From positions 176,328,001 to 176,392,000 of the forward strand of contig OZ024740.1 in NCBI GenBank assembly GCA_964016885.1: a stretch of 64,000 nt of DNA, written 5' to 3'. The stretch is from Eledone cirrhosa (lineage: Eukaryota). Shown here piece by piece: positions 380-32,901 of the stretch (its first letter is position 1; every line of letters begins with the position of its first letter). The notes under the pieces were generated by a model. The model worked only from the letters and a program-made list of their open reading frames with translations, was not told the origin of the DNA and searched no databases. The translations under genes and the position numbers were made by a program.

Positions 380-418
380 AACCTAGCGAGGTACCACGAA
401 AAGATTCCCATACAACAG
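380..418 (+). CDS. Representative A-type 39-nt micro-exon, phase-1 translation (E)[12 protein letters not shown]
   Basis: Acceptor ttctttgttcttttttgtttacag and donor CAG|gtgata; length divisible by 3. Confidence 0.65.
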
Positions 419-30400: not shown

Positions 30401-32901
30401 AGGCTAGGGGTCCTTCACTCTCAGTGGTTTAACTGCGCGATCGGGTGTCCAGCCCGGCTGTTTCTATGTCCACGCCCATATACATACTCATGCACACATG
30501 CATATACATATTTACATATAACATACATATGTACATGTGCATATACATTTTTTCACATTTTTGTCAGGTTTTGTTTTTTGTCCTGCATACATACATACAT
30601 ACATACATACATACATACATACATACATACATACATACATACATACATGTTAATGTTTTTATATTTTTAGCATTTGTTGAATTGATAAACGAACTTTGCA
30701 AAATATATGGTAAGAAAATAAATCATTTAAAAACTATGATGTATGTATGTTTTTATTCCGAACCGAAAAGGAGAGAATGAATAGGTGTTATTTTCTTAAC
30801 CTCAGCAAAACATAAATACACAATGCATCAATTTCACCAATCTCATAATTTTTCTAGAACAGTATAAGATACCTTTAAGTTTTATTATGTAAACAATCTA
30901 TATACGCATATTCTAATTGTTAATCATAAACTACATCTAGCAAGAGCACAACATATTGTTTGGTGCACAAGTTCAATATCACATATTGATAAACTACGTG
31001 CACACCCATCATACACTCGTTTAATTACAATGTAAACTGCCATGATGCTAGAGATTTCTGACTTCCTATCGGTGTAATGTGTGTTCAGTAGTCAAGACAG
31101 TTAAATATGAACAGATGTGCCTAGAATACCCTATATAATTAGCTTGGATTGTATAATAATGTGGAATCGTCGAGTAACTTTGCTGCTAAGGAAGTAGCTA
31201 TGTGAAGCTTAGATTTACTATATGAGTGACATTCCTGAGGCTGATGTTCCCTCTAATTATATGTAGATCATTGCCTATCACAAACTTCTTATCGATGAGG
31301 AGTTTGTGCTTTATTTCCTTAAGCAGTCCTGTATGTTTCAAAAATGTTCCTTTAATCAGTAAATATATAAATATAGACACATTCCATTAAAACGTTTAGC
31401 TTTATATTTAGAAATGTACTAAATTTAATTGGAACACGTAACAATGAATGGAATATATTAATATCATCATAATACAATTTCTTAAAAATTTTTCAGGTCA
31501 CCGCATTAACTGTCAGAAATGGACGTTAAAGAGTGATGAGAGTATGTATTTTAATATTTTACATTCTCTGTTAATTATAAAGATTGAGATATGAATTAAT
31601 TAATTTTCATTATTTCACCATCATTAATAAAGTTAACACCATCTTAATAAAGTTAAGTTCAGCTATTACTGATTGGATAATTACGCTTCCCAGAACTAAA
31701 AACTTCAAACGAAACAAACACCTTGGCAAACCGATCATAATAACCAATTTGTAACTGTAAAGGTCCTGCAATCAGACCACATTGATAGTTAAAATATTTA
31801 TAACATCTTCGCATGCGATAGTTTACATTGAATAGCCGATATCAACACCACCTAGAATCGTTGAATTTAAGACTTGAGGAAATTCCTGTAATTGTACCAA
31901 CTATTATGGAAACCTAGGAGCGGCGGATGAGAACACACTTAAATTACATAGAACACAGTTGACATCTTTTCTAATAGGAAATTTGTGACCGGGTACTGGC
32001 ATAGAATGTTCCAGAAATATTAGTTAAGATATAACTGAGTAGTAAGATTGTGTTTATATATACCTCATATAATGAAATTAGTGGTAAAAATATTACTTTA
32101 TATCTTTGAAAAATACAAAACTATTTAGGTCACATTTGATAGAGCGTATGAAGCTTGGGGATCCCTATTTCTGAAAGGACGCGTTGGATGGAAAGTTTGA
32201 GGACTTTGCCTCTACAACCCTCCCAGGAATAAGTGGGTAAAGAAGTCAAAGAATATGTATGTATGTATGTATGTATGAATGTATGTATGTATGTATGTAT
32301 GTATGTATGTATGTATGTATGTATGTATGTATGTATGTATGTATGTAGATGTGTATGTATACGAAGGCGCGGGCACACGTAAGAGTAATTCGGGCCAATG
32401 GTCTTGATATTGATTTCATAGAAAATCTGATATTATTAATATCCCTGAAACCAAACGGCAGAATTAACTTCATTTTCCAAATTCAATCAATGAAGTAAAG
32501 TCAAGATAGCCGATCAGAACGGACTCAAATACCATAGTCTCAAGTGTGGCTAGGAGATATGTTTTCAGCAATCACTATGATATATTCAAGAAATATTATT
32601 TAAAATATACTTGTGTAAAATCAGTTATTTCATACATACCACATATTAGGAAACACTGTTAGAAGTCAGATTTCATATAGATGACATATACAGAACCATT
32701 AACGTTACATTAGATACTGAAGGTGAGACGTTATGTTTAACTCCCAGTAAGGTTTAAATAAGTTTGCAATATATTACTGGTTTTCTTGATGTTATCTATG
32801 AAATATTGCAAACGAAATTTATTTTCTAATATATATGTTTCTTTATTCTTTTCTGTTTACAGTCAATGGCAAAACACCACAAAACGATTACCAAAGAAAA
32901 G
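380..32901 (+). CDS. Putative micro-exon gene (internal part): array of symmetric 39-nt exons encoding a repetitive Thr/Tyr/Pro-containing peptide; start and stop codons not seen in the window
   Basis: A-type exons (…cag|AACCTAGCGAGGTACCACGAAAAGATTCCCATACAACAG|gtgata) start at 380, 2238, 4224, 6082, 8065, 9923, 11781, 19141, 20995, 22210, 23799, 25016, 26573 and 27636. B-type exons (ttaacag|TATATGACAACGCACCACGAAATTATTATTATACAACAG|gtgata) start at 1360, 3220, 5203, 7061, 9044, 10902, 12760 and 20119. A C-type exon starts at 32863. All are 39 nt, follow a pyrimidine tract and are open in phase 1. Confidence 0.68.
1209..1217 (+). CDS. Candidate 9-nt micro-exon ATACTGAAG ((D)TE), repeated once per monomer
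   Basis: cacattag|ATACTGAAG|gtgaga has a strong donor. The motif is conserved in A, B and diverged monomers (231, 1209, 2089, 3069, 3949 ... 32714). The pyrimidine tract is weak. Confidence 0.4.
1360..1398 (+). CDS. Representative B-type 39-nt micro-exon, phase-1 translation (V)[12 protein letters not shown]
   Basis: Acceptor tttctttattcttttctattaacag and donor CAG|gtgata; 39 nt. Confidence 0.65.
4022..4133 (+). mobile_element. 5'-truncated tRNA-derived SINE with 14-bp TSD
   Basis: B-box gagttcaaatcc, core gcctttcatccttacggggtcgataaaataaagtac, TSD attactgattttct at 4008-4021 and 4134-4147. Confidence 0.9.
7863..7974 (+). mobile_element. Copy of the 4022 SINE insertion, duplicated with the array
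   Basis: Same truncation point, same TSD and same site, exactly 3841 bp downstream. Confidence 0.9.
13295..14668 (+). CDS. LINE ORF1: N-terminal PHD-like Cys/His finger, His/Gln-rich repeats, coiled coil, C-terminal RRM-like region
   Basis: CHIC...WVECGTC...C..C...CLAC pattern; ([24 protein letters not shown]) repeats; [16 protein letters not shown] resembles LINE ORF1 C-terminal motifs; first ATG at 13295. Confidence 0.85.
   Translation: MGRNNKIAMVISIDEICDKTGRCPKIEHCPENHICHICAEPENSFRNRWVECGTCRISVCLQCATGFRRIPGQKKRHHNAMMDGIWEMVQLKSWSFQCLACVPASTNVINVIEKQQQQQKPMTVSSSTTVTEQRQKPMTLASTVIPVGEHQKQQQPMSSTPSTSRHQQLVTVSSPTIPVEEHHHHQQQQQQQPATVSSPAIPVEEHHHHQQQQQQQQPATVSSPAIPVEEHHHQQRQQQQQQQQQQQPTSTDFAELQLMISALRREVAGIEASIRVGPHNEGSYRNALLKNLPVPLAGKTEKTAESATHEVIAIGVPEDKADLQAFAASSAKDLGCVPPKGALRLGRPGPKPRLIRLSFSDPAEATSYHLASAKAGRENRITFRTRPGLPPHVRQKLRAAASLNRNSAQDESFSLRDDGQIWRFVKAGETWKRDTSWSECDLPTITGNVKTATTLGN
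14725..17490 (+). CDS. LINE ORF2: apurinic-like endonuclease plus reverse transcriptase
   Basis: APE motifs LNARS, TETW, GDFN, LDL, SDH; RT motifs [35 protein letters not shown]-terminal TRG...[14 protein letters not shown]. There is no ATG before the APE domain. Confidence 0.97.
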   Translation: MLSLNARSLCNKIHLFESYVRSIDPDFITVTETWAHSLLCDGVFTITGYNLFRKDRINRRGGGVMVYVRSNFSVIPCVDLNESQEEVFFCDIRMTMSTLLLGVVYRPPNYHQDTQLCDILRVAAKKTATYVFIAGDFNHPEIDWETFRWPQGANDFLELVLDSNWSQVVTSPTRGDNTLDLIFTTTPEVVISCTTEEPLGDSDHAMIIANLALEGSNKNQSHLQSACFDWKRADWNLYCTELQRPNWHEMYNSGDVNSILQSILDSIWIACAASVPRKRKNNHPKSAIWETSAVRLARKERRNAEREYKLHRSDANRKKRNKSSNHLKQVTKKAVLEFEQCIATNPDSKVFWKYVHSKQRPHSPVGPLRNPHTSQITDDPKECAELIAECYASIFTVENQNVPSPPSLTSNSITTMEFTPAMLRRHLKNKRNYASPGLDGVTYLLLKRGGDFLLRQLSFFFQYCLSNGATPEQWKTASVIPLFKKGNRMSPVNYRPVSLTSCMAKLMESCVRETLWNFWSSHSLIRPSQFGFIPNSSCCDQLIEFLEDITRITDSGSWVDVVYLDFAKAFNSVPHKRLMAKLSAMGVRDDLFDWLKSFILSRREVVTVLGQHSSPYEMSSGVPQGSVLGPLLFVAYINDIDANLQNATVLKYADDIKLYLEIKRTDPEIYNSFLQSDLDTMQQWITDWQLKLAVDKCTTMHFGRKNPASTYSLHNTDIKKSSCERDLGITVSNDLHWTKHVSKIVKKAEGVLASLSKTFVSRSPAIYLKLYTAMVRPHLEFASSVWNPYLARNIDLLETVQRRATKRIPSIRHLPYSERLASLGMDSLKLRRLAVDLVNTHKVFNHLANCNPERLFDLHVSNTRGRAYKIRKQHSSHDFRRHFFTLRVAETWNKLPASIVSCRDTASLKTLMLSEIRQNYT
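18261..18302 (+). pseudogene. B-type micro-exon with broken acceptor (AG>CG); same lesion at 22918-22956 and 25724-25762
   Basis: ctgtttaccg precedes the exon instead of ...acag; this copy also has one extra TAT codon (42 nt). Confidence 0.5.
27274..27461 (+). mobile_element. Full-length tRNA-derived SINE with 16-bp TSD
   Basis: A-box-like tggcagtatagg, B-box gagttcacatac, family core, TSD actatcatatatacaa at 27258-27273 and 27462-27477. Confidence 0.9.
27591..27674 (+). CDS. Fused B+A exon (84 nt, [28 protein letters not shown]) containing an internal A-type acceptor at 27635
   Basis: Two in-frame tttacag acceptors (27590 and 27635) share the donor after 27674. Confidence 0.5.
28771..28952 (+). 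mobile_element. tRNA-derived SINE
   Basis: tggtagtatcggtagagcg ... gagttcaaatcccgc ... gtagaaacaatt. Confidence 0.85.
29443..29792 (-). mobile_element. 3' fragment of an RTE-clade LINE with (GAA)n tail
   Basis: Minus-strand [17 protein letters not shown]...[16 protein letters not shown], typical of the RTE C-terminus; (TTC)n at 29443-29520. Confidence 0.75.
30586..32398. repeat. Unclassified ~1.8-kb interspersed element bounded by (CATA)n and (TATG)n; second copy at ~43826-46160
   Basis: Colinear similarity between 30650-32250 and 43850-45510 with the same microsatellite borders. Confidence 0.75.
32863..32901 (+). CDS. Diverged C-type 39-nt micro-exon, (V)[12 protein letters not shown]
   Basis: ttttctgtttacag|...|gtgata; length and splice sites are kept although the internal sequence is strongly diverged. 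Confidence 0.6.

Follow-up and report, generated by a model that had tools for sequence, protein, structure and literature searches.

The window analysed here is a stretch of 64,000 nucleotides (nt) from Eledone cirrhosa (assembly GCA_964016885.1, contig OZ024740.1), and corresponds to G000:C1:176,328,001-176,392,000 of a 3.0-Gb genome. It contains the 3' part of a macrosatellite whose monomers carry very small units resembling exons. As judged from the sequence, this array very likely forms the repetitive part of a secreted-protein gene built of symmetric micro-exons in phase 1. Because such exons are symmetric, their copy number can change, and individual exons can be skipped, without a shift of the reading frame. 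The features that define the array in the window are as follows.

231..27674, forward strand: homogenised A/B macrosatellite, 3' part
380..418, forward strand: A-type 39-nt predicted exon, example
1209..1217, forward strand: 9-nt predicted micro-exon, example, encoding a 3-residue acidic spacer in phase 1
1360..1398, forward strand: B-type 39-nt predicted exon, example
about 27591-27622: truncated B remnant
32863..32901, forward strand: C-type 39-nt predicted exon, with a 9-nt unit before it at 32714-32722
34651..34688, forward strand: decayed copy of 38 nt with a TG acceptor, outside the span 380..32901 of the initial annotation

The A/B monomer is about 0.7-1.2 kb long and carries one 39-nt unit, usually together with a 9-nt unit. 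Monomers of type A and type B are about 70-80% alike, and those within either type about 93-97%. In its intact form the larger unit consists of a pyrimidine tract ending in AG, 39 nt, and GTGATA. The initial annotation had counted 14 such units of type A, 8 of type B and one of type C, and all 23 were recovered with matching peptides and variants. The 39-nt class in the window comprises 27 units: these 23, three further B copies with a CG acceptor (at 18261, 22918 and 25724), and the decayed copy. The single 3-nt indel reported earlier is an insertion in the B copy at 18261, which is 42 nt long and has the CG acceptor. Consecutive units are 708-1217 nt apart, or 5501 nt where a long interspersed nuclear element (LINE) intervenes.

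The window holds only the 3' part of the full array. When 200 kb of upstream and 100 kb of downstream sequence were added to the survey, the 39-nt class came to 91 units, which extend between -111.6 kb and +34.7 kb (negative positions are genome positions minus 176,328,000). The young block, with 42 A and 26 B copies, starts 35.6 kb upstream of the window and reaches +27.7 kb. The older part (L009:8405 to L016:6415) has 21 units of the class, four complete cassettes of three further exons described below, and one orphan 36-nt exon. Both splice sites (AG…GT) are kept in 84 of the 91 units, of which 81 are 39 nt long and one each 42, 66 and 35 nt; 83 of these 84 are multiples of three. The remaining seven have a dead site, and two of them are frameshifted. 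Among the A/B copies, AG…GT is kept in 65 of 68, and the length is a multiple of three in all 68. The repeat was found nowhere else in the genome, as four genome searches matched this locus only.

The 9-nt unit, also flanked by AG and GT, is present in most monomers. There are 83 in the locus, 81 of them with both sites. Across an alignment of 18 diverged copies, no other stretch is so well conserved: its diversity is 0.037, compared with 0.157 and 0.212 in its flanks, and none of 149 overlapping windows is as low.

Besides the monomers, the locus contains a block of higher order, about 10 kb long, which carries exon classes of 36 nt, 39 nt (called 39b) and 45 nt in a fixed order, with six copies of each and canonical splice sites. 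The count of 39b refers to copies with donors, one partial copy that has none being dropped. The cassettes are represented in the window by the following features.

28697..28732, forward strand: 36-nt predicted exon; 6 copies in the locus, all with AG…GTAAGT, and phase 1 alone open in all
30671..30709, forward strand: 39b predicted exon with one Cys; 6 copies with donors
31497..31541, forward strand: 45-nt predicted exon with one conserved Cys; 6 copies, all with AG…GTATGT
43867..44821, forward strand: sixth, partial cassette, with 39b at 43867-43905 and the 45-nt exon at 44777-44821

In the intron after the 45-nt exon (window 32006-32141), about 130 nt are similar (68-73%) to the monomer stretch that precedes the 9-nt unit. 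This likeness hints that the cassette exons and the monomer exon classes may share an origin.

The initial annotation had suggested looking upstream for a signal-peptide exon ending in phase 1, and such an exon was found 138 kb upstream of the window. Its donor scores highest (7.1) in a scan of the unmasked flanks. The exon was picked by reading L007 around the flagged donor, a stricter blind scan giving one other candidate, and the signal peptide was judged by eye from its hydrophobic core. Together with the exons below, it gives a predicted gene of about 195 kb.

L007:1837-1897 (from G000:C1:176,189,837; -138,163): signal-peptide exon with ATG, a 20-residue hydrophobic leader and a phase-1 GTATGT donor
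L007:4631-4672 (-135,369): 42-nt symmetric predicted exon
L007:9484-9543 (-130,516): 60-nt symmetric predicted exon
46226..46264, forward strand: single-copy 39-nt symmetric predicted exon
52922..52947, forward strand: 26-nt predicted exon, phase 1 to 0, with flanks distantly related to the array monomer
56558..56629, forward strand: predicted last coding exon, the stop ending at 56590, 39 nt before the last junction
56856..56905, forward strand: predicted untranslated last exon, with AATAAA at 56900

A stop 39 nt before the last junction lies within the distance that nonsense-mediated decay usually tolerates. The 3' stretch of the model is essentially single-copy. A further 36-nt candidate between the 60-nt exon and the array (L008:1076-1111) has a strong donor and is open in phase 1; it was left out on account of the dispersed repeat that forms its 3' flank. 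Excluding the 9-nt units, the model has 107 exons and 1,415 codons, and 4128 of 4248 coding nucleotides (97%) lie in 104 internal symmetric exons of 36-66 nt. With the 9-nt units included, it has 188 exons and 1,658 codons.

The reading frame is fixed as phase 1 by the signal exon, by the 36-, 39b and 45-nt exons, and by the substitution pattern of the older 39-nt copies. The units measure 9, 36, 39, 42, 45, 60 or 66 nt, all multiples of three, and are jointly open in phase 1 only. Each cassette class is open in this phase in six of six copies, whereas phase 0 is closed in five of six copies of the 36-nt exon, six of six of 39b and two of six of the 45-nt exon. No in-frame exon of the 36-, 39-, 39b, 42-, 45- or 60-nt classes with both splice sites contains a stop. 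The initial annotation had also favoured phase 1, on the argument that variants among the copies are then silent or conservative. Its choice of phase holds, but the argument fails among the young A/B copies: variant codons of the A copies amount to 3 synonymous and 10 nonsynonymous in phase 1 and to 2 and 13 in phase 0, with stops in neither. Phase 0, mostly open in the 39-mers and the 9-mer, was rejected because synonymous change would then be three times the intron rate, the cassette exons would be closed and the signal exon would not fit. A lack of frameshifts alone is not significant, since about 1.5 indels that are not multiples of three are expected per 39 nt and one is found among the 84 copies with intact sites.

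Other evidence comes from the older copies. Among 19 diverged intact 39-mers, 140 of 171 pairs have enough alignable intron for comparison. Divergence is 0.133 in the introns and 0.281 in the exons, and the exon exceeds the intron in 131 of the 140 pairs. In phase 1 the synonymous divergence (pS) is 0.138 and the nonsynonymous divergence (pN) 0.312, a pN/pS of about 2.3; phase 0 would need a pS of 0.388. On a parsimony tree, codon positions 1 and 2 show 68 changes compared with 39.9 expected from the flanks (P 3e-5), and position 3 shows 21 compared with 20.0 expected. No stop has arisen in 89 changes, where 5.7 would be expected (P 0.003). Judged by these substitutions, the pattern in the older 39-mers is that of a coding exon under diversifying selection.

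A further line of evidence is the existence of a family. The signal exon has two further copies in the genome, both on the contig of the window (C1). One belongs to a paralog about 23 Mb away, with its signal exon at C1:153,240,561, 11 identical N-terminal residues and the same phase-1 donor. An array 20 kb downstream of this exon contains 45-nt exons that are Lys-rich, intact and open in 15 of 15 cases. They are mostly 2.1-2.5 kb apart, in some cases 3-4 kb, and their acceptor matches that of the 42-nt exon of the main gene.

L043:427 to L046:7829 (G000:C1:153,260,427-153,297,829): paralog gene, 15 tandem 45-nt exons

The family has thus come to the same design on two occasions, each time with another exon, an outcome that would not be predicted of a non-coding satellite. 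Further candidate exons of 60, 45 and 27-30 nt lie downstream in the paralog. The third copy of the signal exon (C1:153,182,858-878, minus strand) has lost its ATG and its donor and has an in-frame stop. It lies in a decayed region (L039, G000:C1:153,182,791-153,182,967, minus strand), head to head with the live paralog 58 kb away.

The predicted product changes in character along the array. The older units (17 were compared) have a mean net charge of +2.1, are rich in His, Tyr and Arg, and contain about two His and two Tyr each. A dibasic pair ends 8 of the 17, and the acidic spacer of three residues encoded by the 9-nt unit follows most. The A and B units are neutral to acidic, with mean charges of -1.3 and -0.3 and no dibasic ends; B units have about four Tyr, and most of both types end with a Thr pair. 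The Thr/Tyr-rich protein proposed in the initial annotation is thus an apt description of the young A/B block, but not of the older units, which are cationic and interleaved with cationic two-Cys cassettes. The five complete cassettes each encode 40 residues with Cys at positions 22 and 31, and four of them have a net charge of +6 to +8. Their helical moment is equalled by 0-15 of 500 shuffled sequences. The protein had been described as possibly secreted or on the surface; with no membrane anchor seen in the predicted C-terminus, it fits a secreted protein better.

The model proposed for the evolution of the locus is tandem duplication, in which every DNA unit of about 0.9 kb would bring in one or two very short exons that keep the frame. 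Whole units of exon and intron would be copied by unequal crossing-over and gene conversion, and this would have given rise to the higher-order blocks and to the young A/B array. The product would be a secreted precursor, cleaved by a convertase into many short, fast-evolving peptides of antimicrobial type. The neutral, Thr/Tyr-rich A/B block would be a recent expansion, and may serve as a glycosylated spacer. That the locus is a coding gene is highly probable, and there is good reason to think that the A/B units are spliced into its mRNA. Regular combinatorial skipping of exons is somewhat favoured, while a function in host defence, suggested by the composition, is put forward tentatively.

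Several observations weigh against a live gene of this kind. In the young A/B copies no signal of selection is seen, the density of variants being 0.26-0.28 per column in the exons and 0.16-0.53 in the flanks, and three B copies in the window have lost their acceptor. The 36- and 45-nt exons show no significant acceleration (16 changes compared with 13.2 expected, and 13 compared with 11.5), pN is about equal to pS in 39b, and pN is below pS in the paralog exons. In the analysis of the older units, the pairwise values depend on one another, and the tree is open to distortion by gene conversion and was built with the exons included. The 9-nt units have no polypyrimidine tract, and about half of them have a weak AAG acceptor. 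Among the copies with intact sites, the one of 35 nt would shift the frame. Full inclusion of all exons meets two stops at junctions, one following the orphan 36-nt exon at -93.5 kb and the other a T-ending 39-mer at -66.3 kb, and also a stop within a 9-nt unit. A long product would therefore require skipping, unless the gene yields shorter secreted forms. The 3' exons were chosen by eye and are the weakest portion of the gene model, the window's own complete cassette has a charge of 0, and no homolog backs any function.

Some of these observations would be explained if the gene were real but the young macrosatellite were mostly skipped or neutral cargo, in which two intronic units that carry exons have expanded selfishly and are tolerated through exon symmetry. 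The A/B copies are without a selection or phase signal, three B copies have CG acceptors, the peptides have lost the charge and the dibasic ends of the older units, and a LINE has inserted in the array. On the other hand, nearly all A/B copies keep both splice sites and every one keeps a length divisible by three. Between A and B, divergence is also greater in the exon than in the intron, with local alignments beginning 13-30 nt into the exon, and the paralog shows the same pattern with another exon. Cargo is an unlikely account of the A/B block. More improbable still is a gene that died recently as a whole, with its exons continuing to be copied as satellite DNA. The junction stops under full inclusion, the dead third copy in the family and the splice sites lost in seven of the 91 units would agree with such a history, whereas the ATG, the signal exon, its donor and the predicted 3' end are all intact, and the in-frame exons with both splice sites, from 36 to 60 nt, are free of stops. 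A live secreted micro-exon gene that includes the A/B exons is the favoured reading, and can be held with fair assurance.

A different kind of alternative concerns the function alone and leaves the architecture the same. Given a live gene, the product might be a precursor of salivary or venom peptides, a cuticle or adhesive protein with cross-links through Tyr (DOPA) and His-metal bonds, or a sperm- or egg-coat protein subject to sexual selection, and the chance that one of these three applies is about even. A high content of Tyr, His, Arg and Lys, such as that of the main gene and of the Lys-rich paralog repeats, resembles that of adhesive and beak proteins. Venom and gamete-recognition proteins, too, typically have repeats under positive selection. 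Clusters specific to cephalopods are formed by His-rich beak proteins, but these were found in squids only and not in octopus (PMC9068888). The dibasic ends, acidic spacers and amphipathic disulfide cassettes suit released peptides better than a fibre. Between venom and defence the evidence here does not separate.

Several known systems resemble the locus in design. The closest architecture is that of the polymorphic mucins of Schistosoma mansoni (SmPoMuc), in which a 27-bp exon lies in each repeat of about 1 kb, with up to 20 repeats per gene and introns homogenised more than exons (PMC2576457). In both cases a tiny exon and its flanking introns form a tandem repeat of about 1 kb under concerted evolution, and a small family includes pseudogene copies. 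The locus differs in its combination of 39-nt and 9-nt units, its 68 young copies in higher-order A/B patterns, its roughly 20 older diverged units and its three-exon cassettes. Its units encode 13 and 3 residues rather than 9, the host is a free-living mollusc, and no similarity was found in general library searches, which included no direct comparison.

The initial annotation had likened the array to schistosome micro-exon genes (MEGs). These are described as apparently restricted to flatworms, and have exons of 3-81 bp and proteins of up to 189 residues (PMC4350168, PMC10526429). The likeness holds for the architecture: 97% of the coding sequence of the model lies in very small symmetric exons, all within the MEG range, with a predicted signal peptide and with transposable elements in the introns. 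MEGs yield a pool of isoforms by skipping exons, and here skipping is implied by the junction stops. A high ratio of nonsynonymous to synonymous change (dN/dS), as in MEGs, is found here in the older 39-mers but not in the young A/B copies, the cassette exons or the paralog. The potential product, with up to about 1,400-1,650 residues, is much larger, and the accessible accounts do not describe MEG exons as a macrosatellite. Membership of the MEG family does not follow, as the genome is molluscan and profile searches gave no credible relative. The locus would work like MEG and SmPoMuc genes, yet it is not a MEG and probably not a SmPoMuc gene either.

Precursors of secreted peptides offer other parallels. 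The honeybee apidaecin precursor has repeated cationic peptides, acidic spacers and dibasic sites. Nasonin-6 of the wasp Nasonia has a signal peptide followed by phase-1 introns, with one repeat per exon and exon duplication; nasonins have 4-5 repeats and no processing signals (PMC2853521). The locus shares with nasonin the signal peptide and the phase-1 introns with one repeat per exon. It differs from both precursors, which contain a few repeats of a single peptide type, in having several unrelated peptide classes over more than 100 exons, and shows no homology to them. Vertebrate SCPP genes, such as those for caseins, statherin and histatins, are secreted and lineage-specific, with duplication of short symmetric exons and a stop in the penultimate exon. 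The exon-duplication layout is shared, and the His/Tyr/Arg composition is histatin-like. The introns of SCPP genes are in phase 0, however, and those here in phase 1, and there is no homology.

Micro-exon diversity genes have been described as a speciality of flatworm parasites (PMC4350168). Cephalopod gene arrays of unknown proteins have been noted, and the accessible text mentions no micro-exon gene among them (PMC9068888). The locus probably represents a lineage-specific family of secreted micro-exon genes in cephalopods, concealed in a macrosatellite. A bolder proposal, possible but short of an even chance, is that it is a MEG-like diversity generator of cephalopods that evolved independently, in which macrosatellite expansion, positive selection and skipping of up to about 190 exons would produce a variable library of defence peptides at a single locus. 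If true, the design would recur in a mollusc that is free-living, and hypervariable secreted peptides would have a candidate source in an animal that lacks adaptive immunity. The locus would also show that DNA masked as satellite can make up the coding part of a very large gene. The exact junctions in the model make expression, skipping and copy-number variation directly testable.

Database searches gave little further information. An exon-centred query of 40 residues, a 21-row exon profile and a signal-peptide profile found no protein homologs, which is weak evidence because the queries are so short. A HMMER library search gave three matches (E 1e-6 to 6e-4), rejected as unrelated repeats that were unnamed or labelled "hypothetical". 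No Rfam match was found in the window. Neither a cephalopod micro-exon gene nor the searched motifs were found in the literature, with subscription journals and supplements, such as gland transcriptomes, outside the search. One further paper shows, in its accessible part, no link to this locus (PMC7024321).

Three sequencing runs (X1-X3) from one sample of unknown kind, with a share of 0.31-0.35, were compared over positions 300-2200 of the window. Coverage of introns and exons is alike, and no match to an exon-exon junction was found among 15 of 29 joints. The runs were treated as DNA-like and uninformative on splicing. The A/B array is present in this sample with many fixed differences. The reads include a 39-mer variant absent from the locus sequence analysed, which is open in phase 1 over 30 letters. 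None of the 12 indels listed is exonic, a number too small for a test.

Mobile elements are found in the introns of the array and downstream of it.

13243..17755, forward strand: LINE with an open reading frame (ORF) for endonuclease and reverse transcriptase at 14617-17490, in a monomer intron and not in an exon

This element looks full-length, with a 476-codon ORF1, a 957-codon endonuclease-reverse transcriptase ORF2, a short AT-rich target duplication and an ATT tail, and it is probably young. Copies and fragments of an abundant short interspersed element of about 185 nt also lie in introns (4021-4134, 7862-7975, 27277-27461, 28770-28955 and 33376-33541), some of them at breakpoints of monomer deletions. 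Retroelement fragments bearing a reverse transcriptase are present at 42713-43918 and 61036-62292 (minus strand).

Haemocyanin genes occur at G000:C1:173.75-173.91 Mb, at C26:21.9-22.0 Mb and on C27; three of these genes share the contig of the window and lie about 2.3 Mb upstream of it. The haemocyanins are of molluscan type and closest to cephalopod entries, in keeping with a cephalopod genome, probably that of an octopod. Their best single-unit matches are PDB 4yd9_C and 1js8_A, which are squid and octopus proteins. One gene has seven units, the number found in octopods.

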